A stretch of DNA of 63,765 bases, the filler included, from Reclinomonas americana ATCC 50394 (Eukaryota), in the NCBI GenBank assembly GCA_048213135.1. It is 8 parts of 8 records of this genome, joined end to end, with 100 filler letters (N's around TTAATTAATTAA, not from the genome) between each part and the next. Parts side by side here need not be neighbours in the genome. Positions count along the whole stretch, not along the records: positions 11,201 to 14,244 come from AFZH01020922.1; 7 more parts are not named here. One strand, 5' to 3'. Under the pieces are notes generated by a model. The model was not told the DNA's origin and made no database searches. It worked only from the letters and a program-made list of their open reading frames with translations. Shown here one piece after another: positions 2,284 through 47,800 of this stretch. The position numbers were made by a program, and so were the translations under genes. Each line of letters begins with the position of its first letter. Position 1 is the stretch's first letter.

Positions 2284-5200
2284 TCATTGTCGACTGGTGC
2301 TGGCCATGAACGGAAGTGTTGCTCGGCACCGGTGGTGCTGGCATGCACAGTACTGCGTCAGACTGCACATATATGCACACAGACCGTCGTCACTGCCGCC
2401 GCTGATCACACCGAATTCGAATGTGCTGACTGAGCCACTCTGCAACGAACCCGCTGTCGTCACACTCGGGCTTGTAGTCGTGCCCGACACACCAGTCATA
2501 GCCTGACCAGAGATGGCAGTCGACGCGCCAGTGGCAGTCGTCCACGAGAACGCAATCGCCGTGCCAGTGTTGCTGGTCACCGCAAAGTTGGTCTGGTCGT
2601 TCGGCACCTGGCCCGTCAGCACGTTGTTGTTGAGGCCGTTGCCGATGATACCGTCACCGAAGGTGGCCTGAGTGGTCGACGTGCCAATGCCGTTGATGCC
2701 GCGCACATCGACAAAGTAGTTGGTGGCGTCGGTGAGGCCGCAGATCACAGCCTGCTGCACCGAGGTGGTGTTCTGCGTCAGCGTGCTGGCCGTAGCCGCG
2801 CGCCACGACACCTGCCACTGGGTCACGAAGCCCTGGCCGCCAGTCTCCTGTGGCTGTCCCCAGCTGAGCCAGATCGTGGTCGAACGCTTGAGCAGAAGGT
2901 TCGAAGACAGCGACAAGATGCCGCTCGGGCGCTGCGGCGACGTGGCCGTGGTGATGGTGATGGCCGTCGCAGACCAGGCAGCCTGGTAGCCGTCGTACGA
3001 CGCCACGCCAATGCGGTACTTGGTGTTGGAGTTGAGGCCATTCACCAGCAGCGACGAGGTAGTCGAACCGAGCGAGCCAATGATTGGTTCACGAACGAGT
3101 CCGGCACAAAAGTGGTCGAGGTGACGTTGGTCAGGTTCTGCACCAGCACTTGCACGCCGACAAAGTTCGCGAAGCCGTCCGAGGTGTTGAGCGAGTACTG
3201 CGTGCCCGACACAGTCGACGGGGTCGACAGCGTAAAGGTGGCGTAGCCGGAGCCAGTCGTGCCAGCCGAGCCGCCAGTGGTCAGAGCCGGCAGCGGGTAC
3301 GGGCGCACAATCGAGTTGGCAATCTGCGACAGAGTGCCCGACTGAGCACCATTCTGCGTCGAGGTCACGCCAGAGTCCGAGCGGGTGTTGGTGGCCTGCA
3401 CGGCGTAGGTGTACGACTTGCCCGGAATGGTCGGGAAGTTGAAGTTGGTGGTCGTGGTCGTCCACGTGTACGTGCGGTTGCAGTTGTTGGTGTTCTGCGT
3501 CACAACGTAGCCGTTGATCAAGGTGCCGCCAATGCCAATCGGCGACGCCCACGAGATGCTGGTGATGGTATCCTGGTAGCAGTTGCCAGAGAAGCCCACA
3601 CCGAGGGTACCAGCCACAGCAGCGCAGCCGGCGCTCGAGTTGGTGCCCTGCGAGTTCGCAATGCCAGCAGCGAGCGTCGGGGCGGCCGGGGCGATCGGTG
3701 CGTCATCTGTGGTAGGGGAGGGGAGCCGTGGTGGATGAGATACTGATAATAATAGAAACTTCACTGATCCATACACAACAATGAGCATCTACCAGTGATC
3801 GCCAACAAGTCTCTATTCAAAAAACAAGCAGATGGTTCCCTTCTCCCTCTCTCACTACCACTCCCCTCTCCTCTCCTCTTAATCTTTCCCTTTCCCTTCC
3901 CGCCTCCCTCCCCTCCTTTCCCCCCTCCACGCAACTGGTGTTGTGAGTGGTCTGAGTCAGCGGGCCAGCAGCCGTGGCCGAGTTGGTCGACGTGGCAGTG
4001 GCGTACACCTGGTACGTGTACGACGTGTTGGCCGTCAGCGTCGTGTCGGCAGTGTAAGCGGCAGTGGTCGCCCAGCCAGCCGGCAGGGTCACCGTGGCCA
4101 CAGACACCGGGGTCGCGCTGCCCTGGCCGCGGAAGATCGTGAACACCGTCACCGAGCTGGAGCCAAAGTTCTGCGGGATGACCCACTGCAGGAAGATGTT
4201 GTTGAGGCCGTACTGCGTCAGCGCCAAGTTGGTCGGCGGGCTCGGCACGACACCGGTGGCAGCCGGAGTGGTGAAGTTGATGGCAGTGCTGAACACGCAC
4301 GTCACCGGGTTGGCGGCAGTGCCAGCCGGGTTGAAGGGCGAGGTCGGGAAGGCGATCGAGAACTGGTTGCTGGCGCAGATCTGCAGGTTGACCGAGGTGC
4401 CAGCCGGCAGGCCGGTCACGTCAATGTAGTAGGTCGACAGGTTGTTGTTCCACGACGCCGCAGCGCCAGTGCCATTGGTGGCCGGGATAACGCTGGTGTC
4501 AATGTTGACGGCGGAGCCGGCAGTGGCAGCAGTCACCGACGAGGCGCTGGTGGTCGAGTACACCACACGGTAGGCGCTCACGTTCGGAGTCGGCGTCGTC
4601 ACGTTGCCCTGCGTGGCGCTCGAGGTGGCAGTGTTGGAGCCGCCGACGCTGATCGGGGTCGAGAAGTTGAGGCGCACGCCAGTCGAGAACAGGCGCGAGT
4701 ACGCCACACCAGTGGGCGCAGCCGGCACGGAGCCGTTGTTGTCGGCGGTGGCCTGGACGGAGCCGGCCGCCGAGGCAGTAGTGTTGTTGCTCACAGTGAC
4801 GCGGATCTTGGTCGTGTACTGCGTGGCAGCCACAAAGTTGTTGGTGGTGCCGCTCACAGTGAAGCCGGTAATCTGCTGGTAGAAGCCAGAGGTGTACGAG
4901 AACAGGCCGAAGAACGAGGTGGCGAGCGTGCCGTTGCCAGTCGCGCCAGTGGTGATGGCAGGCTGGTCAGTGCTGGCGTTGGTCACCGTGTAGGCGGCGG
5001 TCGGCGCAGCGGTGGTGTCGCCCGTGCCAAAGGTGGCCGGGTAGTTGAAGGCGACGACAATCGACGTCGAAGTGACCTGGTCCACAGAGCCAGTGTACGG
5101 AGCCACAGTGTAGGCAGTCGGTGCCGCCGGGGCGCTCATGGTACTCTGCAGTGTCACCGCCACGGCCGACGAGAAGGTCAGGTTGGCACCGTTGGTGCCA

Positions 5201-8147: not shown

Positions 8148-11035
8148 GGAGGGAGGAGAGAGGAGGAGGAGAGAGAGAGAAGAGAGAGAGAGAGAGAGGA
8201 GGAGAGAGANNNNNNNNNNNNNNNNNNNNNNNNNNNNNNNNNNNNNNNNNNNNTTAATTAATTAANNNNNNNNNNNNNNNNNNNNNNNNNNNNNNNNNNN
8301 NNNNNNNNNTGAGGGAGAGAGAGGGAGCAGAGCGATGAGGGAGAGAGAGAGGGAGAAGAGCGAAGAGAGAGAGAGAGAGCTGAGCGAGTTGAGCGATGAT
8401 AGGGAGAGATTATCAGAATCTGTCCGCCGAGCTATGTCTCACAAACAGACTCACTAACTCAGCGAATCCCCCCTGGGTACAAAGCCATTCTCTCCGCCAA
8501 TCTCTCTCTCTCTCTCTGTGTGTGTCCCTCTCTCTCTCTCTCTATCATGCGTCTTATTGCTTGTGTCGGCCAACAGGCGGTGCGCGAGCCACAACCGGGT
8601 GAGAGTCTCATGTTCCGCATCACACAAGTACTGGAGGTGTACGAGAGCGTGACATGGTTTGGTGACTCCTCCAAACCCGACGCGGTGGATGGCTTGCCTC
8701 CCGTGGCACTCGTGTTGGTGGAAGTGACAGAGGAGTTCAAGCCGGCTAGCGGTGCGTCGTCTCTGCATTCTTTTGTTTGTGTGTGTGTGTGTGTGTGTGT
8801 GTGCATGAATTGAGTTCCTGTCCACCCGCAGCCCTGGTGCGTGAGCATTACAGCCAGCAAGTGGAGTTTATCTTGCGCGTTCTCGCCAAAGGTTTGCAGT
8901 GCGACATGTGCGAGTCTGAATCGTTCTCGGAGCTCACTCCTTGGTGCCCCCCGTGCAGGATCGCTGCGCATCGAGACATCTGGGCGCGATAGTTACGCGT
9001 TCCCTCCTGTCTCTCGTTTTTTCAGAGGAGTATCGTCGTCGCTGACTTGCGCTCATGAAAAGGTCTGCGCAAGCGCTTGTTGGCCGCCCTCGATGCCGCG
9101 CTGTCGGCGCACAGTGGAGGCGCGCGCTCCGTGTCACACTTTGAGTACTTGCGAAAGCTGATCAAGGTACGCGCTGGGTTGACAGGGCGCTCTTCTGAGA
9201 CGATGGCCTTGACTCTTTGCCGCAAACAGGTGTGCTTCCCGCTCGTCGCGCAACACCTGCTGATGGAGCCGCCAAACCAGCCCGTGCAAATGGTTCGTGT
9301 CGCTTGCTGACACTCTCAGTCGGCTCGTTCTTACCGATGCGCTTCTGCAGATTTACAAGTATAGTGTGCTGTGGATCTCCGGCCCCGATCACAACAACGA
9401 GACCTTTATCACGCTGCGGAGAACATTCTCGTCGTACGCGGCAGCCGTTGATTTTGTGCAGGAACGAAGGAGTGCCGATGCGGCCTTGGGAATGCGTGTG
9501 CTCTGGTTCGACTTGGTGGATCCGACGCCGGAGACGCTGCTGAGTCTGTGGGAGTTGTCGGCCATTGAGTGCCAGACACCGCTGCCGACGTATCCTGCCG
9601 ACCACTGGGGCTTCTCAGAGCGCAGCATCGAGACGGGCTTCCGTGCCTCCCTGCAGCGGTGAGTGCAGGGGAGAGGGAGGGATGAGAAGGAAGGGCGAGG
9701 AGTTGATAAGCCTCTCACCTCTGTGCCTTTCTCAAAGCGCACTCGCCGATGTTGTGCGTATTTAACTCACATGCATTTTGATATCCGCACACAGCTTGCC
9801 GGAAGACAATGTCGGCCCACTTGGTACGTGAGCCGTCGTTGCCACATGCACGCGTGGTGGTTCTCACTGAGGGGATGTGCGCACAGATCGACTCGATGTG
9901 TACTTGGTGGACCCAGAGGGCTCCGATTTTGCTGTGACCGTGCACAATTCGCCGTGCTCGGTGGTGGAGGACGTGGTCCGAGCTGCGCTGGAGGTGCGTG
10001 TGCGCGTAGTTCTCTTTCCATGTCTTGCTGTAAGATGCTGAATCGGTGCCGCAGAACGAGCGCGAAATCGACGACCCGTGCTGGGTGCTGCGCAAGATTG
10101 TGGAGCGATACGTGGAAGACGATAAGGAGCAGCTGCAGTTGCTGCGCGAGGAGGTCAGCCAGTTGCAAGATGTCGCTCTGGCGCTGCCGGCCGAAGACTA
10201 CGACACGAGTGTGCGACGAGTGGAGGATCGACTTGGTGCCCTGCGTCGCGTGTCGCGTGAATTCGAGTGTGTGGCCTCGGCGCGCTCGCACATTATTCTC
10301 GCGCTGCGAAACTGGCGCGATCGCGTTGCACACGGATCTTACAAGGTGCCGTTGCGCAATTTGTTCGTGTTGCTGCCGGTGGTGATGCATGCTCACGCGC
10401 CAGCCGTTGGTTGCAGGAATTGCTCGGGCTGGAGTTGTCGCTGCAGCAATCGCGCGTGTTGTACAAGTTGCGTGCTGCCACGATGAGTGAGGCAGTGCAG
10501 GATCGATGTTGTGGTCTCATGTGATCTGTGTGACGGCAGTCAATTGGAGGAGCTCATCAAGGAGACATTTTCATTATTCCAGTCAAAGCGTGATTACGCG
10601 GTGCGTGTATTATGCTGTGGTGTCTGATCTGGTGTGCTGTGGCTGACATGAACACACGCAGCTGAATCAACGGATGAACATTCTGAGTAAGTGGACAGTG
10701 GTGTTCCTGCCGCTGTCTCTCATCACCGGTATTTTCGGCATGAACATTCGGGTTCGTCTGTCGTGATGCTGCTGCTCTCTCGTCTGTCACCTGCATGCTG
10801 ACTTGACTGTGTAGCTGCCTCTCGAGGCGGATGCGACATTCATTCCGTTCTGGTGCATCATGACTTGGTTTGCCTTGTCGATTTTCTTCTCCTCGTGGCT
10901 GTTGCGTGCCGAGATCATCGTATTGGTGTGCCTGTCCTTTGAGTTGTTGCTCACTGTTTGTGTCGTCGTTTGCAGCCGTGTCGACAAAATCATCGGGCCC
11001 ATCTACTCGGTTCTGAAAGCCATTCGCAATCGACT
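6413..11035 (+). CDS. CorA/Alr1/Mrs2 (2-TM-GxN) Mg2+ transporter with long N-terminal extension; spans gap 8210-8309
   Basis: Spliced C-terminal part reads LNQRMNILSKWTVVFLPLSLITGIFGMNIR|LPLEADATFIPFWCIMTWFALSIFFSSWL (GMN motif between two TMs), preceded by helical stalk exons and VLWFDLVDPT. Joining of the 6413-8092 exons across the gap is inferred; the 3' end may continue past 11200. Confidence 0.8.
6985..7360. repeat. Purine-rich ~95-bp minisatellite inside CorA-gene intron 6947-7621
   Basis: gtgctgagggagaaggatRtRgagagcgagcgagagctg recurs at 7133, 7228 and 7323, with degenerate copies upstream. Confidence 0.9.
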
Positions 11036-11046
11036 GTTGCGTGTCG

Positions 11047-11082
<36 letters not shown>

Positions 11083-11235
11083 AGTATTCTGCGCTCTCCT
11101 NNNNNNNNNNNNNNNNNNNNNNNNNNNNNNNNNNNNNNNNNNNNTTAATTAATTAANNNNNNNNNNNNNNNNNNNNNNNNNNNNNNNNNNNNNNNNNNNN
11201 TCATCATGCAGCTGCTGCTGTTTGGATTAGTAAAG

Positions 11236-11278
<43 letters not shown>

Positions 11279-11845
11279 CGAACTGCGATCTTCACCGCAC
11301 AAGCGCGCACTGTAAAGCAATGGATGTGACGAATGCGTGATGCACAGCGTTTTCTGCGATCACGTACGGCACATCGAATTCGGGAAAAGGCCATTGCCAG
11401 GCAAACAAATCAAAGCCGGATCCGGATCCGTGAAGCAAGGAAAGCAGTGGAGGCGTCAGCGTTGGTGGAGAGGTTGAACACAGGAGATGCTTTCTGGTGC
11501 TCACTCAAGATGGCGATCATCATGCAGCTGTGTTGCTGTTTGGATTAGTAAAGTTGTTGTTGTTGTTGTGTTGTTGGCGAGGCTCATATCGGTGGTTACA
11601 TCATCAAAGTTCGAATACATCGCTTCATCTATCATCATGTTCATGCACTGCCTCATGCTTTCGCGTTGGCGACAATTTCTATCCAAGAAGTGCCGACGCT
11701 GCAAACCGCAGCGTACTTGCAACTGAGCCTTTCTCGTGCTCACTCAAGATGGTGATTATCATGCAGCTGTTGTTGTAGCGAGTGGTGTCGTTGTGATTGT
11801 TATTCTCACCATCTCGGGACGGCAAGTCACGTGCCATCGCCTTGC

Positions 11846-14172
11846 TCATCTCGCAGTGTGACGCTTGTCAACATCCATGGAGGCAGGTCGGGGTCCATTC
11901 GGCACACTTATCGCAGCATCTGTGAAATGTAGCGGAGCGTTGAGAAGAGACAATCAAGAACCATGCATGCATCGGCATTCAAACGCACCGTACGCCGCCA
12001 AGTGGAAGAGCGCAGCCGTCGTCTGCAGATCGCGCGGCACCTGCAGCAACGCCGGCTGCACCTGTCGCTGCTGGGGGGTTATGGCCACTCGGGAAACGCC
12101 AGCCACCACAGCCGTGAACACTGGCGACATGGCGGCGGCCGGCAGACCACCGAAACACGTCGACACCGCGTTGTGGCCACCGGCAATGAGCAGGAGGGTG
12201 GCTCCTGTCGCCAACCGGTAGCTGGTCACCTGCAATCCAACAGAACATCATCAGAGGAGAAAAGTGGGAGACAAGAGCGTGATCGTGACGCACAAACGGT
12301 GACAGTTTGGTGGCAACGACACGAGCAGCCGACTGCAGGGCTGCCACCTCAATCTGTGCGCAGAACATAAGTACTTGGGGGCGAGATTTGTTGCACACTG
12401 AGTGCACCAACTCACTTCTGTCCGACAGTCGCTCTGTCACATAACATGGGGGCAAACACATGCGAGCAAATTAGTGGAAGCACACGCACTGCACGCAAGG
12501 AGAGATGTACCATGTTGACTGCAGCACACGCAGTCAGCGACGATACACATGGAATACAGCAAGGCATCAAGTGTGTTGCGCAACGGATGATGCTGCCCGA
12601 CTGCATGCACGCCATGTGCCACGCCGTGAGCACCGCAGTGTTGCCGGTCGTTGTTACAAAAATATCGCAAAAGGCCACGACATCTTCCACTTGCACCACC
12701 TCGAAGCCTGCAATGCTGATGAGCACACTCACCACAACACGCGCACGTATGAATCGGCATTTGCCGCATACCGTCTGCACACGCCAACAGTGCCTGTATG
12801 GGATCGCACTCGGAGACAAATACGCGACACCGCTCCTCCTGCACACGCGATTGACGTCAGTGCGACATACACAGCCAACTTCCTCACACCAGCAAGCTTG
12901 CAACTCACATGCAACACTCGCGCTGCGGCGCGACCTGTGGCACCGTAACCACACACCATGACCCTCTTGCCGGCTATGCAGAGGGAGGTCGAGCGGCGCA
13001 AGATGTCTGTGAGGCGTGAGCCGGCACCCACGGAAATCGCCATTTTCATCAGCTGCGACGAGTTCTGCGCACGGCAATTCAGCATCGAGCGCAGACGTTA
13101 CGGGGGAGTTCACAGAGGGTGAATGGGGTTCGCAACGTAGTCAAACACAGGCAGCAGGAGCGCGCGATGTCGCAGCAGCTGCCAGTGGCCAGTGAGATTG
13201 CCGTTCTTCTTCTTCAACACACACACACACACACGGCTGCTCACCATGCGCGCGGCTCTCAGGGCTCCCTCTCCGACAACCACGGCTCCACGCAAGCGTC
13301 GCACCAACTGTGCAGATTGAGTGTCATGAACTCTTTTTCCACGCCCACTTTCCACCACCACACCCGCCTCACCTGCTGCCACAAGTTGGTGATTCCTTGC
13401 CGTACTCTCTCCTGCAGGAAGCGCGCAAGTGACGGGTGGTTGGCAGGCAGCACAGGCCATGCGCCTCGTACGGGGCGCGGAGCAATCGCCGTCACCTCGG
13501 CCAGAAATCCTCTGTGAGCGATGCACATGCATGTGAGTTGCAGCGGTATTCACTCATGTCGCTCAGCGGACGCACCGGTGAATCATGTGCAGCAAGAGGC
13601 CCTCGTCGTCTATGATCATGTCGGACCCGACACTGCCGGAGGCGTCGGCCGGCCATGTCAACGAATCCGTTACTGCCTGCCAAACATTCTCTGCCACGAG
13701 CAAGGCGCGCGGTATATCGTTGGTTTCTCTGAATATATAGCCCGTGAAGACGACGACCATCGCTCACCCGTGTCATCGCGCTTACACAGGACCACGGTCG
13801 CCAAGCGGCGCGCCTCCAAGGCACGCCACAGGTCGGTCACAGACACGGCGCGCCACATGTGCTGCCTCGGTGGTTGTTGTTGCACTGGTGCTGGAGGCTG
13901 CTCCTCAGGTGCCGGCACATCAATACCCATGCGCTCCAGTGCGTGAGCCGCAAGATCCACCGGTGGCAACTCGGCAGAAGGCCCGGCAAGCCGATCGCCT
14001 TCCAGCACCATCGACACGTCCTTCGCGCTCTCCTCTTCTTCATCGCTCTCCTCGCTGCCGACGTCGTCGTCATCGTCCTCATCTGTCAGCCACACCAGCC
14101 ACTGTACACTGGCACCAAGCTCATGCAGTCCCTCAATCAACACCGCCGTGCTTGTCGTCAGCGGCAAGGCGC
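11846..14172 (-). CDS. Adenosylhomocysteinase (AHCY/SAHH)-like protein, highly divergent; N-terminus lost in gap
   Basis: Colinear AHCY landmarks: TAVLIEGLHELGASVQW, DMIIDDEG, IAGKRVMVCGYGATG, VFVSECDPIQALLA, CDIFVTTTGN, LLIAGGH, VPRDLQTTAALFHL. The frame stays intact through GT-AG introns. Confidence 0.85.
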
Positions 14173-14437
14173 CTATATTCACTTGCGTGAATCATGGATC
14201 CCACTCACTCACTCACACTCTCGCACACACACACACACACACACNNNNNNNNNNNNNNNNNNNNNNNNNNNNNNNNNNNNNNNNNNNNTTAATTAATTAA
14301 NNNNNNNNNNNNNNNNNNNNNNNNNNNNNNNNNNNNNNNNNNNNTGTGTGTGTGTGTAAGTGTGTGTGTGCAGCCCTCCGTTGCTCTCACTCTCTGCACA
14401 CAGAACGCGGCGTGTCTCTACGAGGAACGAGCATTCA

Positions 14438-14732
14438 TTATGATGAAGATGGAGGCGCCGCTGTTTGCACACACACACACGCACGCACACAGACAGCGTG
14501 TGAGTCTCCCCACTCTCGCGTCCACTCCCAGTGCACACACGCAACTCGCTGCACCACTGTTGCTGCGCTGCCGCTCCTCCTCCTTGCGCATCTTGTCTTG
14601 CACGTAGTACTCGCCGAGGTAGATGCCGAGTTGGTGGCCGCACACCAACGCCGCCGACACAAAGGCGAACTTGGTGGCCAGTCGGTAGCGCGGAAGCACC
14701 CATGGGCGCACCTCCAGACTCCTCTTCTCCAT
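14438..14732 (-). CDS. Small (69 aa) two-exon protein with one hydrophobic segment, unknown function
   Basis: MEKRSLEVRPWVLPRYRLATKFAFVSAALVCGHQLGIYLGEYYVQDKMRKEEERQRSNSGAA|TAPPSSS*; intron 14545-14461; GC-rich codon usage. Confidence 0.6.
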
Positions 14733-14829
14733 TGTAACAAAGAAACGACGAAAGACGAAGGACGGAGGACTGCTCTCATTTATTCAACGAGCGTCGCCAC
14801 AACGCAACAACAACACCACCGACGCACGA

Positions 14830-16568: not shown

Positions 16569-19500
16569 TCAACAGTAGTAGCTGGGCGCGATCATCAGCT
16601 CGCTCAGCACGTCTAATTGCTCCTCGGTGAATAGCTCCTTCTCCTTGGCCCAGTTGTCGCGATGCGTCTTCCAGAAGTCGCTCAGCACCTTCTTGACGGC
16701 CGTCTGCATCATAGGAAAAGTCAGCCTGCAAACTTCATGCACGCCAAACGGAAGGAGCGAGACGAACCGGCACGGGCGACGGATCGTTGATGTGCTTGGC
16801 CACGGTCACCAGCACGTGCGGCGTGTACGGGCGTATCTCATGCGGGAAGGCGCGCACGATGGAAGCCAGACCGAGGATACCACTCTGACGCAGCGACGTG
16901 TGTTCGCGCACTGCACTCCGCGATGAGTCGCAATGGAGAGTGAGCGAAAAAGCAAGGGCGACGCAACAGAGTGGATCGGTGAGGTCGTACTTCTTGCCCT
17001 TTTTCCTGATCGGCGAGTTCGCCAGTGCCTCGAAGCGCTCCTGCGACACGCGAAGTGAGTGATCGTGACTGGCACGAGTGGAGCGGGGGGCGTCACGCAA
17101 CAATCATCGCGGGCAGCTTCCCTTCAGCGTCCAACACTGAAATGTAGCCCGACAGGGTGACTGAGGCCGCCTCGCGCACCTCCAGCGTCTTGTCTGACAG
17201 CGCCGCAATGATCGCATCGAAGAATTGATCCCACGAGGCCTCGGTCAGCATGAACCGGTTGCGGAAAATGAGTGGCCTGCGCACAGTAATGCTCGTTCAG
17301 TGCCATCATCGACGGGAGGGGGAGACGACGCCACGCAACTGCAGCATGCTGAGCACAACGTGTCTGTGCAGCCAGGTGACATCCTTGGCGTTCTCCATCA
17401 GCAGTTGTTGTGCGTACTGGATGATGAGGTCCGAGCAGTTCGAAGGCGCTGCAGCGGGCAGGGGAAAGAGAGGAGTGAGGCATGGGGAGACGTGCAGAAG
17501 AGACAGAGAGAAAGGGAAGAGGAGAGGAATACAGGCATAGGCTGAGGGGGAAACCGACAGACAAACATAGAGACGGCCTCATTTCTCTATTTCTCTCACT
17601 CACACTCCACAGAGAGATTACATGGCAACACAGAGGCAGAGACTTGATGTAGACAGTGTTCGTCTCTCTTCCCTTCCTCACTTCTCCACACTCTTCCCCT
17701 CCCCCTCAGCGCACCATACTCCGCGCCCCACACGAGGGCCGCATCGGGCGGATACCGTGCACCGACAAACACAATGTGCGCCACGCCGCTGAAAATGGAC
17801 AGCGACAGACGCTTCACCGACTGCAAACCGTACACAGCATGGAGTGAGCGTCCATCGCTGTGAGACAACAGTACACACACGAGAAGCACGCACCTCGTCT
17901 GGAATGGATTGCGCCTTAAACAGCACAGGCATCAGCACAAACGTGTACATAAAGTACGACCGATTGCTGCACGAGCTGCTGCTGCGCGCGACAAAATCGA
18001 GCGCTGTCTTTAGCGTGTTCAGCAAACGCAGCGTCTGCTGCATCTCCGCCGGCAGTCGTCGGTGCGAATCCGCCACTTGCAACGTGGCTGTGGGCGGTGT
18101 TACCGCAGTGAGTACACAGCAAAAAAAAGACAAGGAGCAGCACTGTGCCTCCCATTACCTTCGTTGGCGGCCGCGTGATCGTCTTCCTCACTCTCATCCA
18201 GTTCGGCTTGGTCCTTTAGCGCCACAATGTCAGCTGGCATGATAAACACTGGGGAAATCAAGCATCTTCACTCACCAGACTGGCGAGCTCTGTCACACTG
18301 GACTGCAAGGCGCCGTGCAAGTGCTTCAGCATCATCTCTTGCAGCTCCACTGGCACAGTCACATCGGGCAACTGCACGACACAACATGCGACGTGAGGAT
18401 CAAGGAAATCCGCGCAGCAAAGCACACCTATGCATCAACACACACCAGGTTCGACAAATCGTCCAGTGTGCGATTCTCGGACGCCAGGTACTTTTCGAGT
18501 GCATCCTGCAACTCCTCCGGCAACGAGCGGCTCTGCGCCAGCGCCACCAGGCGCGCCGGATCAATGTCGATCAAAGCCGACCGTCCGAGCCCGGCGGGAG
18601 GCGGCGGTGGTTGCACCGATGCACCCTCGCCTGCCGCTGCGGTTCCGGCCGTCGACGTTGCCTGCCCGAACCAACTGTTATTTTCTCGGTTCCTTCCACT
18701 TGCGAAAATGCCAAAGAGAGGCAGACGCAACTGACTCGACCTGCAGCGTCTGCTGCGCGGCAATCACATCCATCGCAGTACCCATGTCTAGCATCTCCAA
18801 ACTCGCCGCCCACTCACGAATGAACTGCATGATCACCGGGTCCACCTCGTTGCCGGAGGCATCTGCCGACAGCAGGAAGCCACCAGAGGCGCGTAGGAAG
18901 GCCGGCTTCCACATGTTGCGCACCACCTGCGCGAGCGTGAGCACTACAACGAAAAAGGGGCGAAGTCGGCGCTTCTCCTCCCCACGCAACTCGAACGAGC
19001 AGCGACGAAATGCGTCCGCGCACTTGCTGGTACGGGTGGCCGAGATGCGCACGCACCAAGTCGAGTGCCCGATCTGCAATCGCACATCACAATAGTGAGA
19101 TACATGTGAAGTCTATTCGTCAACGCCCATGTCTGTTTCCTTCTCCTCCTCCTCCTCCTCCAAAACGCAACAGTCCAGTCGCGGACTGCGCCAGCTCAGC
19201 TCGCCAATCACCGGCCCGAGGTACGTCAGCCGCCGCACATGCAGCGACGATGGTACCGATGCGTCGCCCAGGTCGAGGTCCTCGAACAGCAAGTCTGCGA
19301 GCGCGCGAGCCAGTTAATTCTCACACACATGAATGATGGCGAGCGAGAAAGTTGCAGCGACGCACCAACAAGCCACTGGATACGCCGCGGATCCTTGTCA
19401 TAGACGCAGTCACGAAGGCAGTCGCTCCAGTCGGCAGCACACTGCAACGAGCTGTGCTTCAAGCAGTGTCGCAGCACTTCGCTAACCTCACGCCACTTGA

Positions 19501-29499: not shown

Positions 29500-32400
29500 T
29501 TACAAGACAACGCAGCAGCCGCTGTTGCCAGTGGGAGTCGTGTTACCGGGTGTGACGGCAGTGGAGGAACGAGTGCGGAGAGCAGTCAACTCTTGAGTCA
29601 CTTGATCGTGCCTCGTCTGTGAAGCCGTGCGCAGCGGTGAGAGAGAGCGAGCTCGGCTCTACGAGAACAACAACAGCGCACAGACCTGCAGAGTACGGTG
29701 CGAATCCTGCAGTTCGGTGAGCGCGGCATCCTTGCTCTGCAGCTCTCGTTGCAGCGTGTGTCGCTCACGAACGGCCGTCTGTGCCTCCTTCTCCAACCGT
29801 CGAATACGCGAGCGCAATTCCTCGGCCTCCTCGTCCCGGTCGACAATCTGACGCTGCGCCTTTTGCAGTGCCTGTCGTGCGGCCGTCACCTCCGTTTGCA
29901 ACTGTGGCGCGACCGAAGGTGTCAGTGGCCAAGAGATTGAGAGAGAGAGAGAGAGAGAAAAGAAGAGGACACCACAGCACCTTCATCCGCTCTTGACTGC
30001 CGCGCACGAGCTCCATGGTCAAGTCGTTTGACGGACCGGCGTTGCGGTTCTCCAGCGCCTTTTGTAACCTCTCCACTTCGGCACGCAGATCGGTGCGCTC
30101 ACTTCGCAGACTGTCGACCATGGACGCCACCGCTACGAGCACGCACACAAAGAGTCAGCCAAGCAGGGGCATGAGCAAGGCACAGACATGACCACAAACC
30201 TCGTGGTGACGCCATGGACCGCGGTGTGGTCGCAGCGGCGGCGGCAGCGGCAGCGACTGTGATGAGACGCGTGAGCTCCCGTCAGAGGGAAGGAATGGAA
30301 TGGTGACTCTTAGCACGCAACTATTGGTCACTGCCGACGCGTTGCCGAGGCCACGCACAGTCGGTGCTGGCGACGTTGGAGAGTAGCCGACACGAATGGG
30401 TAGCGGAAGTTTCGCCGTGTCCGACGGAGACTTGCCCCACACTTGCACATTGACGACGCCGTTCATCATGTACTCCGACATATCCTCCGTCATCACGATG
30501 GCAAAATTGAACGTGTCGCCAAAACGCGGGTTGCGATTGGCGCCCTCCACCGTCTGTGTGCATATGTGTGGTGTAAGGAATCCAACTACTCTCAGGAGGG
30601 CGATCAGAACACCACGTCACCTTGGTGCGATTCTCGCGCGGATCGCGATGTAGTCTGAATGAGCAGTACACGTCGGTGGCGAGGCTGGTCGGCAGGTTGC
30701 GTGCGCACAGAATGGTAATGGAAAACTTGAGCTCGGTGCCGATGGGCACCGGCTGTGGCTCGAAATCCGAGGCATCCGAATCCATCGATGCCAGCGGGTC
30801 GTAGTCACATTTTCTGTCACGATAGGAGGTGAGGGGGGTGTCGGTCTCAATTAGCAAGCAGCAACACGCACAAGACATAAGCAATGTGCCCGAGGTCCTG
30901 CGTGCCACTCTGATCGGACATGATGGGCAGGATGCCGTCGCCAGATTCCTCGTCGGGTGGATCCGTGTCGTCGTTGACACCGACACCCATGCGCAGCGAC
31001 ATGAGGTAAAGGGGAGCAAAGCCGATAAGCTGTCGCTCAGCTCTAACAATAAAAGGGTCGTCCTCCAACGGAAGCTCGTACGTCTGCACAGCACCTCGTC
31101 AGTGTCACGCGCATGCACGACATGAGAGACAAGGGGGCACGAGGCAACACACCGAGTGCTTCTGCAAGGCCTCGTGCACGTCGCGATAAACTTGATCCAT
31201 GACCGCAAAGCGATCACGGAAACTCTCAAAATCCCAATGCGCCACCGTGGAGTTCCACAGCGAGCGCACCTCTACCATGGCGTCCACCTGTGTGCACAAG
31301 TGTGTGGTCAGCCAGGTCGCAGGGGGTGATAATGAGATGAGCGGAGAGTGACGAACATCGGACTGGAATGTGCCGACATCGTCGCGCACCAGCCGTGCAA
31401 TGGCTTCCGGGCGCCTTCTAAGCACGCCGTTGAATGCGACAGGCCGCTTGAGATCTTCGGCAATGAGGTTGGCCTGCCGAACGAGCGGCAGGAGCTACAC
31501 ACAGAAAAAGTGATAAGGGAGAAGCCATGTGAGCAGCGGACGAGCTCAGGCACGCGCACCGCCGTCAGCTTGTTGTCCAGTCGTATTCTGTGAATCTCCT
31601 CCTGCGCGCGCTGCTCCTCTCGAATAACGCTGACCTGGAGGGCGGCGGCGATCTGCTGCTCCAGTTCTTGGTTCTTGCGCGCCAATCGCTCGCGCTCCAA
31701 TTCCAGCTCACGTCGGGCGGCATGCTGCGAGGCACCAATGTCACTCAGGGAGGAAAGGAGAAAGGAGGAGCAAGACAACGTACCACAGCTGGAATGTCTT
31801 CCTGCACTTGGCGAATGCGTTCCTCGTAGCGTTGTTGCATCTGCGGAAGGATGAGGGAGGGGATTGAGTAAGAGGAGAATCGAGGGAGAAAGGAGGGGAA
31901 GAGAGGAGAAGGGAGGAGAAGGGAGGAGAAGGGAGGAAAGGGAGGAAAGGGAGGAAAGGGAGGAAAAAGAGGAAAAGGGAGGAGAAGGGAGGAGAAGGGA
32001 GGAGAAGGGAGGAGAAAGGAGGAGAAAGGAGGAGAAAGGAGGAGAAAGGAGAAGAAAGGAGGAAAGGGTGGAGAAGGAGGTGGAAGTGAAGGAAGAGAGA
32101 CAGAGGGTCGAGCGGAAGGAGGAAAAGAATGTCGACAAAGAGAAAGAACGGGAAGGAATTGAAGAGGGGAAAATGGAGTGGGAAAGAAGAATAGGAGAAG
32201 GCGAAGGAAAGACAACCGGCAAGAGAGAGGATATAAGGAAAGTCCGCCAGTAACGGCCGCTCTTGTTAAACCATTACTCACCTCACGCTCGAGCTCAACA
32301 CGTTCGTGCTGGGCCTGCTCGCGCTCCTTCTGGAATTTGGCTTCCAAGCGCTTGCGAACGCGCGCTGTGTTGCGTGCCACCTCACGCTTGACTTCCTCCG

Positions 32401-35400
32401 GGTCACGGTAGCCCTGGTTCTTGAGCAGTTCCTGCGAGACGGCGATGCGATCAGCGATGGAGTTCGCGCAGCCTCAAGGGGCGGAGACAGACTCACCATG
32501 TACGCAAACCGGTACGTGATTTCTTCTGAGGGAGCGCCGCATGTGGGATCTTCGAAACGGAACAGGTGGCTTGAGCCGATCCAGATGCGCGAGTCCTGTG
32601 TACCATCGTGATAAGATACGGGAAGAGAGGGGCAGCAACGACGCATATACATACACCGAAGGGAGAACGAAATGCGACAAGTACAAAAATGCATGACATT
32701 CATCGTCCTCTGCTTCGTACCTGAGTCAACTCGGTGCGCTCTCGCACTTCGGCACCATTCACAAACGTCTGATATCTCGCATCGGTGGTCAGTGGCGTGA
32801 GCCACACTTGACCGCCTGTGGACAGAAGAATTGATGAGACGAGCGTGGGGGTAAGACTTTCGCCGAACGAGATACGCACCCACGTTCTCCAGTATGCAGT
32901 GCTTGTGATCGACGCTGGCACCCACCAGCACAATGTTGGCGTGTGATTGCTGCTCGCGGATGGTGAGCAGACGGCGAGTAATTCAACAATACACACAACA
33001 ACTGCGCACCGTAGAGGCGGACTCGTCGAGGCGTCCGACAACCAGCGACTCGCCCGGATTGATGCCGTACTGCAGGCGGCCATCCAGGAATGGATCCTCA
33101 CTCATGTTGACGATGCGCGGCACTTCTGGCGGGAGCTCACTCAGCGTGATGCCCATTTCCTGTGCAGGTGGCGATCAGACGGCCAGCACGATGAAGCAAA
33201 AATTCACCAGCAGAAAACGCACCCGCAAGTACGCTGCACGCTGCGCGTCGAGGACCTTGCTGTGCTGGTGGCGTTCGTTGAATGTCTGCGTCATTTCTTC
33301 GATGAGGCGCAGCTTCTCCTCGAGCTCGTCTTGCAGGTCCTGCAACATGGCCGAGTTCATCTCGTCCTTGCGCGCTGCACGAGAGAGAGAGAGAAAGCAC
33401 CACGGTCAGACGCCAGATATTTTCGAGTCGATGATCGTGACACTCACCGAGCTCCTCTTGCAGCTCGACGATACGCGCTTGTGACTCTGCGCAACAAGGG
33501 AATGATGATGCTGAGGACAGCGCACGGAGGAAGAACGGATGGAAATCTCACCTTCTGCAATCCGCTTCAACTCGGCGTCGGTACGCTGCTGCTTCACGGC
33601 CTTGACTTTGACGGTGGACACGGTTTTTGAGAACCTGGATGGGCATTGAGGGTGAGGGAACGGGTGGCGCCAGCTCGATTTCTGTGGCACGCAACTCGAG
33701 CGTGGAAACCGATTCCTCGTAACAGGCGGACGTTGGCGAGATGGTGGCAATCATGATGGTCTTGCTGTTTTCTCCCAGCGATTCTTGGAGCATCCTGCGA
33801 GGCGTAGAGTGAGGATCCACAGACGACTTGGGGGCGCAAACGTGCTGCGGTCACGCAACTCGGTGAGTTTCGAGTCACGGAACGAGGCCGACTGGCCGCG
33901 CGCCAGGTCACGAATCACACGGCCGAGTGTCATGAGCGAGAGGTTGATCTTGGCTCCCTCCTGTGGTCACCCAGGATGAGAATGTAGTCGACGCCGAGCG
34001 AAAAGACAGTAGACACGCACCCTCAGCGCGATACCCTCCGTCTCGGCCTTGCCGACGCGCTCGGAGCCAGCCAGATCGACCAGGTTGATTTTGGCCTCGG
34101 TGGAGGAGCCAGCACGGCGGTCCTTCTACGAAATCGAAGCAACGTCCACGTGAGCGGGCGTGAAAGAGACATGCTTCTGAAAAATAAGGAGGACGGCACC
34201 TTGCTAAAGAAGATGGTGATGACGGTGTGCGCCCTCGACGACTCCAAATTCATGGCGGTGGTGCCGAGAATGCTGTAGTGGGTGGTCAGGTCACGCAGAG
34301 TAGATGAAGAGAACGTCATAGGGGGGTACACACCGCAGTTGGAGTCCTTGATTCATGTGGTGCATCATCTCATCGTACGAGGCGACAAATACTCTGCACG
34401 CACAGGTGAGCGAACAGAAACAGAGAAAGAGAGAGGCACGGGGTATGCAGCGAGCGCGCCACGCAACTGGTTGGCGCCAAACACATACGTGCCCTTTTTC
34501 TTATCATGGGCAACACGGATGCGCTTGTCACTCTGCACACCGAGAAATACGAGAAGTGAGCGACCTCGGGCACGCACATCTTTCTGCACGGCGAGCGCGA
34601 AAATAACCTGCTCCTGGCGACCGACAACGAGCAGGTCGCTGAGACGCTCCATGTAGATTTGCACCATGGTGAGCGAGAATTCGAACTCTAGGTCGGGATT
34701 GTCGCTCATCTCCGCCTCGCAGCGGTTGAAGAGGTCGCGGCATAACTGTGCGCGGGGTGAGAAATTCGTGGATGCGCAAAGACCTTCTGATGGTCCACGC
34801 TGCGCAACTCTCGGTACAATGCCTCGCGTGTGCTCGTTGTTGCCACCAATCATCGAGAACGACTTGCCGGAGCCACTCTATGGGATGTTGCGCGAATTGA
34901 GCGAATGCACGCACAAACGCACGCACACTACCGCATGCACACCTGGCCGTACGCAAACAATGTCGAGTTGTAGCCTGTCACAAGAAGGAAAGTGAGACTT
35001 GGGGGCAACCATGAGGACATCAGCACACAGAAAAATCGCACCCTGCAGAGCATTCTCCAGCACGACATTGCCGAGGTCTTCGTAGACGCGCTTCTGGTCC
35101 GCAAAATTTGGGTCTTCGGGGTTGTGACTCCAATACGCGTAGTTGTACACGTATTCGCGTGGCATCGCATCCGGGTTGGACGGATTGGAGATGGTGACCA
35201 CGTTGCCGTCCATGGCCACGATGCATTGCTCGCCGACCTCGCTGCGCCACAAGAAAGAGGATTGAGCCAAAATGCAGGCGAAGGGAAGAGAGAATGTAGC
35301 GAGAAGGAATGTCTGTCGATGTGCGTCGCCTGCCAGCCTCACAAATGCAACACCGGGTGTAGGAAATGCCCGCATCGATCTCACGAAGTGCGAAGAGCAA

Positions 35401-41500: not shown

Positions 41501-43487
41501 ATGCGACTCTGCGCCAGCACTCTCCTGCTCGTGGCGCTTCTCGTGGCCATCATCGCCGCAGCTCCATCGCTCTCCACACTTGTCGCCTCCTCCTCTTCAT
41601 GCTCCGATCGCTTTCCATGGTCGCTCATCGAGGCATCATCGTCATCCGAGGAGGGCATAGGCGCGGTGGCTTACGCCACAGCACCGTTTCAGCTTCGTCG
41701 CGAGTGCACTCGCGCCTTCTCCTCGTGGCTGTCGCTGCGTGCGGAGGCCTTGTCGGTGCGAGCCGGTCGCCTGCGCAAGTTGTTTGCCAGTGAGTTGTAC
41801 GATGTGGTGTCGCAGGTGCAGTCGCCGGCGTATGTGCTGCGACGGCATCCGCAGTTTGATCAGGTATAGTGGTACAGTGTAGGTGTGCAGTGATTGTCGG
41901 GTGCATGATGCGTTGCATGCAGGCGTCGTCACAGTTGGATATCAATGTGCGTGTCACGCCCTCGCGCGTCGACGAGAGACTGTCGATGGTGGCGGAGAGA
42001 TCGTTCTCGCCGTCGTACTCGCTGGTGGTGGAGAATGCGGTGCGTCTTCCGCCATCCCCTTGACCGAGTCTCTTGAGCTCACTTGTGTGTCGCGCAGGTG
42101 ATTGCCGCGAATGACTTTGTGTACACCGCCGACTACTTGCTGATTGCCCGCTCGTGTGAGCCGCACGGGCATGTCGAGTCGCGCTGGTGGTCCGCCACAG
42201 ACACTGTGCTGCTGGCCGATGCCGTGCTGCCGCTCCTGCAGTTGCACGCCGACAATGTGTTTCACATTGTGGCGGACTCGCTGGCACGCCTGCTGCAAGT
42301 GTGGAGCGAGGTGCATGCGGATCGCAGCATTGTGATTCTCACACGTGCCGGGCGCTACGGCGACGAGATGACGTACGACTTGTTTGCCACTGTGGGCATT
42401 CCACGCGAACGAGTTGCGCCTCGATATGTGCGCTTTCGAGTCTGTCGAATCATCCCTCACGACATGTGTGTGTGCACAAGTTGATCCTCGGGCCACCGCC
42501 TGTCATGGCCCGGAAAGTGTACTTCACCGCCGGCATGTACTGCACGCAGCCGCAACCCTCCATCATTCGTGAACTGCATCGCGTGTTCATGTTGCTGCAC
42601 GGCGACATGGTGCGTGCCGCGCTGCGCGAGTACTGGGCACGTTGCGTCACGTGCATCTCTCCTCCTTCTCCTCGTTCTCCTCCTCTCACCGCAACGATCT
42701 GCGCAGCCCGACGATCCGTGGCACTGCGAAGGCTGGGTGCGACGCAGCGACCGGTGCGTCGTGTCGTGTTGCTTCAACGCGACGGTGTGCGGGTGCTGGC
42801 CAACCATGAGCAGGTCTCGTTTGTGACACTGCGCGCGCAAAGCGCAGCGTCTTCCACTCACTGCGACAGGGCAGGTGGTGGACGTGATGCGACGTGAGTT
42901 TCCACACTTTGATGTGGCCGTCATGCCACCGCTGGCCACGGCGGCGGAGGCCGTATTGCACTTTGTGGACGCCGACATTGTGGTCGGTCCGCACGGCGCC
43001 GGCTTTGTGTTTCGCATGTTTTCTGCGTCGAATCGTCCGTGTGCCCACGTGGAAGTGACGCACACCGGTGGGCTCCCTTCCAGCATGCCGTGGGATCCGT
43101 GTTTGGCCGCACTCGCTGTGGTGCAGGTGAGGCGGGGGGATGGGAGGGGGGAGAGGGAGAGATGGGAGAGGGAGAGGGAGAGGGAGGGACAGAGAAAGGG
43201 AGGGAGGCAGGCTGCACGGCTGTTCCAGCTCCGTGCTCTCGATGGAGATGCCAGTTGTGTGAGACATGCGAGAGAGAATGAGGAAAAAGGGGGACAGGGA
43301 GAAAGAGAGACAGGGCCACCCAAGACTGAGCTGTGCACATGTGTAGGGCTGTGTGGCCTTTGTGCACATGGATGCGCAGGGATCGCGCGAGTCGTCGCTG
43401 ACAGCGCCGCTAGACGAGGTGCGCTGGCTCCTGCAGCAGGCCGACGAGTATCTGGACGGCAAGGATACAGTGCGCAGCAGGCATTGA
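41501..43487 (+). CDS. Glycosyltransferase family 61 (DUF563), with signal anchor
   Basis: MRLCASTLLLVALLVAIIAAA; HADNVFHIVADSL; VVLLQRDGVRVLANHEQ; ADIVVGPHGAG...MF...HVE. Confidence 0.8.
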
Positions 43488-44285
43488 GCGTGGGAGAGAA
43501 GAAATGCAGCCTTGACACAGACATCTTGGCCTTTGTTGAGGCGCGATGCATCGCTCTGCCGATCTCTCTGCGTACCCGTGTCCTTCTGGATTCCTGGTTC
43601 ACCGTCCGTCGTGAATCTGGATGCAACTCAGCTTGTTGTGCAGTCCGGCTGTGACGGCAGAAAAGCGCTGGACGACTACGCAGGAGCGAACGTCGCAAGC
43701 CAAGGTGGCTGAGGCTGTCTGGTTAGTGAGGGTGATAGCTGGCACGACGTCGGGGTTTCTCCACTTGCTGCAGTTCCAACACACGACAAAGCCTAGTCGT
43801 CAACACAGCTGCTGTTCCGTGTTGCTCGAAGCATTGAATGCGAACCGGACTGAACAGATGACGAATTCGGCGAATTGGTTTTCAGCAAAAAGCGTGCGTG
43901 AGTGCTGGGTGCCGCTGTGCGTGCACAAGCACATCGATGCTGTGTCGTAGTGGCGGGTGCGAAAGACACTCTGCCATTCACAGCCCATGTGTTCCTCGTG
44001 GTGAGAAATTAGACAACGCATCTGTGTACACACTCTCACACACACACTCTCTCACGCACTCAGCACTCTTTCACATTCGTGTGCACGAGTGAGTGAGTGA
44101 GTGTGGACGGAGCGAATGACCCAAGTTGATTGCGACTCTCTTCCTCTCTCAGTCACTCTTCCTTCCTCCTCTCTCCTCTCTCTCTNNNNNNNNNNNNNNN
44201 NNNNNNNNNNNNNNNNNNNNNNNNNNNNNTTAATTAATTAANNNNNNNNNNNNNNNNNNNNNNNNNNNNNNNNNNNNNNNNNNNN

Positions 44286-44881: not shown

Positions 44882-47800
44882 CGCAGGCCATCTTCTGCGT
44901 CGTACCAGACTGTGGGTGCTACAAATTTGACCATTGGTGTGTACTCTATGCTCCGTCAGTTGAGTTCCTCTTCTGAACGGGAGCTGTCTGTCGTGCAGTG
45001 AACACCGCTCCAACCGCTCCCACGCTCTCCTCGTCCACCTATCCGCCACTACTAGCTCTGAATGGCGTTATTGGCACACTGTCTTCGACGGACATTAACA
45101 CGGGCCAGACGCTCACGTTCTCCATCTCCGGCGGCGCGAATCAGGCCTCTTTCAATCTTAGCGGAACAAGTCTGCGCTCGAGTGTGGCGGGGTTAACGGG
45201 CAACACGTTGCAGGTGACGGTGCAAGTAAGCGACGGTGTCGGAGGAACAAGCAATACGACATTTTCAATTAGCGAAGGTGCATTGTGCCGTGAGTCATGT
45301 GCTTCATTCTTTCTTCTCACCATTTTCCGCCGGTGGCAGCCAATGTGCTGCCCACGGCGCCGACACTCTCCACATCATTATACTCACCACCCTTGGCCCT
45401 TAACGGCGTGATTGGCACGCTGACGTCAACGGATGTCAACACGGGCCAGACGCTGACGTTCACCATCAGTGGCGGCACGAACCAGACCGCATTCAACATC
45501 AGCGGCACGAATCTGCGTTCAAACGTGGCAGGATTGACGGGCAACGGACTGCAAGTAACTGTGCAAGTGAGTGACGGGGCTGGTGGGACAGCCACGGCCA
45601 CATTTTCAATCAGCGAAGGTTCGTCGTCAGCGAGCGTGACCCTGCCTAATGATTGGTTGGTGTCTCATTGTTCGCTCGTTGACAGCTAATGTGGTGCCGA
45701 CGGCACCGACTCTGTCGCCGTCAACGTACATTCCACCGCTTGCGCTGAACGGAGTGATCGGCACGCTGGCGTCGATCGATCCCAACACGGGCCAGACGCT
45801 GACCTACACCATCACCGGTGGCACAAGTCAGGCCTCTTTCAATCTTAGCGGAACAAGTCTGCGCTCCAGTGTGGCAGGATTGACGGGCAATGTGCTGCAA
45901 GTTACAGTGCAAGTGAGCGATGGCGCTGGAGGAACAACCAGCACGACGTTCTTGATCAGCGAAGGTGATGTGATCTCCGTTCTCCATCTGTCTCTTCACA
46001 CTCACGTTTCTATTTGCTGATCCTGCTCGCGCTGCTTCACAGCGAATGTTCTGCCCACTGCGCCGACGCTCTCCTCATCCACCTACGTGCCGCCGCTGGC
46101 GCTGAATGGCGTGATTGGCACGCTGTCTTCGACGGATCCAAACACGGGCCAGACTCTGACATACATCATCATCGGCGGCACGAACCAGGCTTCTTTCAAC
46201 ATTAGTGGCACGAATCTGCGCTCCAATGTGGCGGCATTGACAGGCAACATGTTGCAGGTGACGGTGCAAGTGAGTGACGGTGCAGGAGGAACGAATAGTA
46301 CCCCGTTTTCCATCAGCGAAGGTGCGCTGTGCGCCGATTGTCTGTCCTAGTCCTGCTTCTCACCTTCTCTGCTTTGGTGACAGCCAATGTGCCACCTACC
46401 GCGCCGACGCTCTCCTCCTTGACGTATACACCGCCACTGGCTTTGAACGGAGTGATCGGCACCCTGTCGTCGACGGATGTCAACACGGGTCAGTTGTTGA
46501 CGTACACCATCACTGGCGGTACAAATCAGGCCTCGTTCAACATCAGTGGCACAAGCTTGCGCTCCAATGTGCCAGGACTGAGTGGCAATGGACTTCAAGT
46601 GACAGTGCAAGTGAGCGATGGAGCAGGTGGCACGGCAAGCACAACGTTCACCGTTAGCGAAGGTGTGAGAGAGAATCTGGATATTTCCGTGCGTGATTCC
46701 GTGAGTTTCTCACTCCTGCTCTTCCTCCTGCCAGCCAATGTGCTGCCCACTGCGCCGGCCCTTTCGGCGTCTACCTACATACCACCGCTGGCCCTGGACG
46801 GCGTGATTGGCACGCTGTCCTCGATGGATCCAAACACTGGACAGACTCTCGCGTTCACCATTACGGGCGGCACGAGCCAGGCCTCATTTAATGTCAGTGG
46901 CACGAGCTTGCGCTCAAGTGTGGCTGGCCTGACTGGTAATGGACTGCAAGTGACTGTGCAAGTGAGCGACGGCGCCGGAGGAACAGCCAACGCGACATTT
47001 ACTCTCAACGAAGGTGAGCTGTTTGTTGAAGTCAGCGAAAATTGCTTTGCGTCGAGTTTCTCATTGTTTTAATTGTGGACAGCTAATGTGCTGCCGACCG
47101 CACCAACACTCTCTTCGTTGACGTACCCACCGCCACTGGCACTGAACGGGGTGATTGGCATGCTGGCTTCAACAGATGTCAACACGGGACAGACGCTCAC
47201 CTTCACTATTACTGGCGGCACGAATCAAGCTTCGTTCAACATCAGCGGCACGAATCTGCGCTCCAATGTGGCAGCGTTGACGGGCAATGGACTGCAAGTG
47301 ACTGTGCAAGTAAGCGACGGCGCTGGAGGAACGAACAGTACCACATTTTCAATCAGCGAAGGTGTGTCGCTGTTCTCGTGACTGTGTCTTCGTGTTATTT
47401 GGTCTCATTGTTCGTTCTTTGACAGGCAATGTGTTGCCGACGGCACCGACTCTGTCTTCATCGACGTACATTCCGCCTTTGGCTATGAATGGCATCATCG
47501 GCGTATTGTCGTCGACCGATGCCAACACGGGCCAGACGCTGACCTACACAATCACCGGTGGCACAAGTCAGGCCTCGTTCAATATCAGCGGTACGAGTTT
47601 GCGCTCCAGTGTGGCGGGACTGACCGGAAATCTGCTGCAAGTGACGGTGCAAGTGAGCGATGGCGCTGGTGGAACAGCGAGTGCGACGTTCTCGATCAGC
47701 GAAGGTGCACTGATCTATACTTTCTTCACGCTCTCGTTTCCATTGGCTGACGCTGCTCGCGTTGCCTCACAGCGAACGTGACACCAACTGTGCCAACACT

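Follow-up and report, generated by a model that had tools for sequence, protein, structure and literature searches.

The window analysed here, by which the whole stretch of 63,765 nucleotides (filler included) from Reclinomonas americana ATCC 50394 (assembly GCA_048213135.1) is meant, contains an AHCY-like gene on its minus strand. The gene has 13 exons running from 14172 to 11846, with a terminal TGA at 11846, and 12 introns which are all GT-AG and 62–77 nt long. The spliced frame encodes 502 amino acids and its sole stop is the terminal one, so that the coordinates and the intact frame claimed in an earlier note on this DNA are borne out by the 13-exon model. The features are given below by window position and strand; residue numbers are mammalian and were transferred via the alignment to mouse 5AXA.

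14245..14344, no strand: assembly gap, spanning the contig C5456 (1302 bp, outside the window) and unsequenced DNA
13768..14172, minus: first visible coding exon, 405 nt; LPLT for LHMT, then an insert of ~78 residues; PF05221, E 0.0028
14030..14083, minus: Asp/Glu-rich run of ~18 residues at the start of the insert, identical in nucleotides between the haplotypes
13576..13690, minus: exon with DD; Asp130 and Asp131 kept, G132>E, D134>L
13373..13511, minus: exon encoding the ~40-residue insertion of plant/protist/bacterial type
13245..13307, minus: exon with VVVGEGA for SEETTTG
13137..13178, minus: short exon; its 3′ boundary is common with canonical intron 2 (between NV and ND in the host AHCY)
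12909..13064, minus: hinge and Rossmann glycine-loop exon; K186, D190, N191 and C195 lost; PF00670, E 2.5e-6
12933-12950, minus: GYGATG glycine loop within the exon above, whose end is the canonical intron 3 position
12772..12838, minus: exon with ECDP (12800-12811); E243, D245 and P246 kept; best-conserved segment
12585..12707, minus: exon with TTTGN (12640-12654); T276, G277 and N278 kept; PF00670, E 1.1e-7
12511..12518, minus: inferred 8-nt microexon (N298), from intron geometry; splice sites present in the second haplotype
12416..12433, minus: inferred 18-nt microexon with SDC replacing the GHF gate, from intron geometry and the second haplotype
12294..12353, minus: exon for the distal part of the cofactor domain
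11989..12229, minus: exon with N346>V, GGLP for TGHP, M358 and F362 kept, and the C-terminal helix (P..L...A..HL)
11846..11919, minus: last exon, diverged tail, 6 residues shorter than the host AHCY; final Arg at the Lys426 column, no Tyr430

The motif NMSDC in the product rests on the inferred 8-nt and 18-nt exons. The gene is 5′-incomplete: about 55 N-terminal residues are missing because it runs into the assembly gap, and its 5′ exon or exons should lie in or before the gap at 14245-14344; in the second haplotype they likewise fall into a gap. A recognisable 5′ exon was found in neither haplotype, and when 3.3 kb upstream of the second-haplotype copy was scanned with a profile, the scores did not rise above those of 20 shuffles. 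Just before the gap, an AG...GT-flanked segment (C3313:32772-32814) resembles in one frame the motif preceding AHCY intron 1, and is a by-eye candidate for the 5′ exon, not above the shuffles. An apparent match to the AHCY N-terminus was rejected as 5′ exon as it falls within a dispersed repeat.

This repeat of ~200 bp occurs in the window at 11280-11298 and genome-wide, with one 19-mer having 225 exact copies in the assembly. Some copies stand in opposed pairs 400-600 bp apart and are putatively MITE-like; one copy lies upstream of the AHCY-like gene in the C3313 haplotype (~32380-32580) and is absent in the other haplotype. An ORF of 61 residues with two WxCIHRP motifs is present in both haplotypes, on C5456 (1302 bp, in the gap) and on C3313. 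Conserved blocks resembling exons, with a strong donor on the opposite strand, are also present on C5456 and may belong to a divergently transcribed neighbour. A small gene upstream (14420-14735, minus) has one hydrophobic segment, is conserved in the second haplotype and gave no Pfam match. The convergent neighbour (~10660-11090, plus) encodes a hydrophobic helix ending in GMN, without a Pfam match in the scanned ORFs, which by its motif we take to resemble a Mg transporter of CorA/Mrs2 type. The Pfam scan of the window covered 150 ORFs and gave the following matches:

2287-3702, minus: fibronectin type III
16738-17103, minus: PSME4/Blm10 C-terminus
34368-34877, minus: kinesin motor
42827-43651, plus: glycosyltransferase 61, match below cut-off
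45294-50174, plus: run of Big_9-like Ig repeats

Residue inventory against canonical AHCY

Few enzymes are as conserved as AHCY. The spliced product was compared with an HMM of 102 canonical AHCYs, made of 100 out of 120 proteins picked by a length of 440-520 together with two AHCYs modelled from the same assembly, and scored 190.7 bits (E 3.9e-60). Apart from the ~78-residue insert it is colinear with canonical AHCY from His55 to the C-terminal helix, and in a single-exon Pfam scan three of five exons matched PF05221 or PF00670; its colinearity with the domains AdoHcyase and AdoHcyase_NAD places it in the AHCY/SAHH superfamily. Identity to the canonical AHCY of the host is 29% (120/413), and 70 of 181 near-invariant AHCY positions are retained. 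By segment, identity to the host enzyme is 13/18 at 243-260 and 18/38 at 261-298, and falls to 7/49 at 146-195 and 10/53 at 299-351.

Seven residues are named in PMC4647836 as the substrate-ribose and catalytic set (His55, Asp131, Glu156, Thr157, Lys186, Asp190 and His301), and only Asp131 is kept here, the other six being replaced as had been claimed. The replacements read H55>P, E155/E156/T157/T158/T159>V/V/G/E/G, G300/H301/F302>S/D/C and H353>L; K186, D190 and N191 are also lost, in a stretch where the deletion of a single residue leaves one position of uncertainty in the register. The substrate adenine pocket (Leu54, Thr57, Glu/Gln59, Leu347, Met358, Phe362) keeps four of its six residues, namely L54, T57, M358 and F362. 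At the C-terminus Y430-R431-Y432 is absent and the Lys426/Tyr430 clamp is missing, the Arg at the 426 column being the last residue.

The substitutions listed in the earlier note (LPLT, VVVGEGA, LMKMAIS, NMSDC, GGLP and the loss of KxxxYRY) are all present in the HMM and 5AXA alignments, which also agree with it on the retention of DD, GYGATG, ECDP, TTTGN and the ~40-residue insertion. Its description of an acidic insert in place of SCNIFSTQ holds for the replacement of the loop and not for the acidity throughout: the insert is of ~78 residues net, acidic and Pro-rich, with the acidic part confined to the first ~18. With the residues for hydride transfer and for the later elimination missing, SAH hydrolysis by this protein would be very unlikely under the established mechanism.

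Selection and origin of the copy

A second copy of the gene at ~95% identity is present on C3314. It is adjoined by C3313, which is syntenic with the window upstream, and for this reason the second copy is best read as the other haplotype. The two differ by 27 synonymous changes (386.7 sites) and 7 non-synonymous ones (1119.3 sites), which gives a dN/dS of 0.086 (Fisher p 5e-11) rather than a value near 1. In the 12 introns the haplotypes differ by 11 indels in 775 nt, a rate that would predict ~21 for the exons, whose 1511 nt have none. Every splice dinucleotide is conserved. Strong purifying selection acts on the frame and on the splice sites, in line with the earlier claim that the gene is selected. 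In the insert, no constraint is apparent from the two haplotypes (1 synonymous and 3 non-synonymous changes, the latter 3 of all 7 replacements), though the numbers are small, and the canonical host AHCY has 5 synonymous and no non-synonymous changes over the 944 bases compared.

That the gene is a decaying pseudogene, or that its model is mis-spliced, is suggested by the missing 5′ end and by the two inferred microexons. The low dN/dS together with the contrast between exon and intron indels argues that the gene is not a pseudogene, and the uniform intron lengths speak in the same direction; this reading is nearly excluded. A fold that appears from its sequence to be kept under purifying selection, with the catalytic residues lost, is what is generally understood as a pseudoenzyme.

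As had been supposed, the genome has a canonical AHCY at another locus, and the AHCY-like gene is thus not its only AHCY. The canonical gene contains introns, has all motifs intact and lies on C80, with its second haplotype on C2851; since the dispersed repeat of the window is also present on C80, this contig is assigned to the same eukaryote as the window. No further AHCY paralogue was found in the own genome. An insertion-free AHCY on C2 (2.05 Mb), a co-assembled bacterial-type contig of intronless genes, was rejected as the host enzyme as it is itself intronless and surrounded by bacterial-type genes.

Three of the four canonical AHCY introns match introns of the AHCY-like gene in codon and phase, among them intron 1, which corresponds to the acceptor of the exon at 13768..14172; nothing in the AHCY-like gene corresponds to the fourth canonical junction, which reads N. 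These shared positions point to a DNA-level duplication within eukaryotes, not to retrotransposition or bacterial transfer, and the copy would have arisen from the lineage's own AHCY. The Cys in ECDP is found in 2 of the 102 canonical sequences, which are the host AHCY and its closest database relative. In a quick tree of 36 rows the AHCY-like protein grouped with the host AHCY and P0002 (SH-aLRT 99) on a branch of length 10. In a placement test with 23 canonical rows and 43 positions the best three placements all touch the host lineage and lie within 0.13 log-likelihood units, and the remaining ones are at least 2.9 units worse; only 12 of the 43 are rejected, so the host placement is the best one without being significant.

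Known relatives

The inactive eukaryotic AHCY paralogues treated in PMC12955632 are the animal AHCYL1/2, which are reported there to be absent in plants. AHCYL1/IRBIT and AHCYL2 (PDB 3MTG, 3GVP; Drosophila dAhcyL1/2) resemble the present gene in being inactive paralogues beside an active enzyme, in having an acidic low-complexity addition and in their proposed dominant-negative role. They differ in lacking the 40-residue insertion, which is absent from 3MTG and 3GVP, in aligning with an insertion-free AHCY over nearly the full length (E 4.5e-141) and in retaining EESVTG (PMC7060199), whereas the AHCY-like protein contains the insertion, is much more strongly degenerate and has its acidic patch internally. 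AHCYLs also carry an N-terminal IRBIT domain, a region that in the AHCY-like gene would fall within the missing 5′ exons. It thus departs from the insertion-free animal-type domain of the AHCYLs. An origin separate from AHCYL/IRBIT, as the earlier note had it, is supported by the insertion type and the shared introns, and with the Cys of ECDP these indicate that the protein is not an AHCYL/IRBIT, the trees being without AHCYL rows.

Canonical insertion-bearing SAHHs (PF05221 with PF00670; e.g. PDB 3OND and the host enzyme of C80) share with it the two-domain colinearity, the ~40-residue insertion, the adenosine-side residues of the Rossmann domain and Asp131, and the host gene also three intron positions; unlike it they retain the catalytic set, the nicotinamide-side contacts and the Tyr430 arm, and are without the acidic, Pro-rich insert. 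The short SAHHs and SIHHs of archaea and Thermotoga likewise have no C-terminal Lys/Tyr clamp (PMC13406329), but they are active with the catalytic core kept and have no insertion, whereas the AHCY-like gene is an intron-rich eukaryotic duplicate.

Searches for closer relatives were made with single exons, which are weak queries. Word-index searches with the first visible exon and the glycine-loop exon gave no scored match, an HMMER library search with an 80-residue exon gave two matches, neither AHCY-like by eye, and a metagenome scan gave one locus, an ordinary bacterial AHCY. In the ESM Atlas one exon matched AdoHcyase clusters, all below 0.9, and the other had no match. Full-text searches of a library with few subscription journals turned up no paper on a protist AHCY pseudoenzyme.

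Nucleotide site and proposed function

The NAD contacts of AHCY are divided by moiety in PMC13406329, which numbers few of them; most of the mammalian numbers used here are our own mapping. The glycine loop GxGxxG, E243, D245, T276 and N278, all on the adenosine side, are kept. On the nicotinamide side none of six contacts is kept, T157, T159, N191, C195, V224 and N346 all being replaced, and T158 is changed as well. The claim of an intact NAD fold therefore stands for the adenosine half and is overstated as a whole, every nicotinamide-side contact checked having been replaced. The kept half-site suggests that the protein may bind an adenine nucleotide (AMP, ADP or ADP-ribose, or NAD(H) loosely).

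Judged by its sequence, the gene is a real and selected AHCY paralogue, presumably dead as a catalyst, with the nucleotide site half retained, and we hold with high confidence that it is under selection and devoid of SAH-hydrolase activity. As nearly all of the chemical machinery is lost and the gene is yet strongly protected from mutation, the product is probably a non-catalytic regulator, separate in origin from the animal examples. A neofunctionalised NAD- or ADP-dependent enzyme with another substrate, built on Asp131 and new residues (e.g. Asp at 301, His at 343, Glu at 158), could account for the strong selection across both domains and the kept GxGxxG/E243 signature, and archaeal SAHHs function without the Lys/Tyr arm (PMC13406329); the replacement of T157, T159, C195, V224 and N346, mostly by small or hydrophobic residues, argues against hydride transfer, and we consider such an enzyme improbable.

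The C-terminal arm of AHCY completes the adenosine half of the NAD site in the neighbouring subunit; D245 (rat D244) pairs with the Lys of the partner, and K426A/E abolishes NAD binding (PMC12955632). Our preferred model, held tentatively and at slightly less than an even chance, is that the AHCY-like protein co-assembles with the canonical AHCY. It would fold like an AHCY protomer incapable of the 3′-oxidation chemistry, and its best-kept surface (243-278) would receive the Lys426/Tyr430 arm of the partner, while its own arm is cut short. With an arm received and none returned, the mixed dimer would fill the nucleotide site of the dead subunit and leave the NAD of the active one unclamped; the weakened active subunit may then damp SAH clearance and methylation potential, and the acidic insert may be a site for docking or phosphorylation. 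In animals a lowering of activity by AHCYL1-AHCY heteromultimers has been reported (PMC7060199), but one group did not detect an AHCY-AHCYL1 interaction (PMC12955632), so that the animal precedent is disputed. Against co-assembly stand the degraded oligomer-stabilising tail and the low identity to the host enzyme, and the retention of E243, D245-P246, T276 and N278 could be explained by generic Rossmann or helix-cap roles without any AHCY partner.

Nearly as likely as co-assembly, and more so than a new enzyme, is a pseudoenzyme that makes no contact with AHCY and works as an adenine-nucleotide sensor or as a structural scaffold for other proteins, by means of its acidic, Pro-rich insert and of the N-terminal part that is not seen, in resemblance to the non-metabolic roles of IRBIT. 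The low identity with its very long branch, the lost oligomer tail and the new surface insert of ~78 residues are in keeping with this plausible reading, and the best-documented AHCYL functions are independent of AHCY according to PMC12955632; it is less easily reconciled with the arm-receiving segment being the best kept and with the apparent lack of constraint on the insert between the haplotypes. The co-assembly model may be taken further to an asymmetric regulatory subunit, evolved separately in a non-animal eukaryote, in which the half-site was reshaped from NAD to adenylate and takes the AHCY arm while returning none, so that the adenine-nucleotide state would gate SAH clearance and methylation; this we regard as unlikely.

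AHCY normally clears the methylation by-product SAH, and the single-celled eukaryote studied here has retained, besides it, another copy that is much changed. If true, a dead AHCY of separate origin, far more degenerate, under measurable purifying selection and with a cleanly split NAD site, would mean that the fold has been recruited repeatedly for non-catalytic work, and the AHCY-like protein with the host AHCY would offer a simple two-protein system for dominant-negative control of the methyl cycle.
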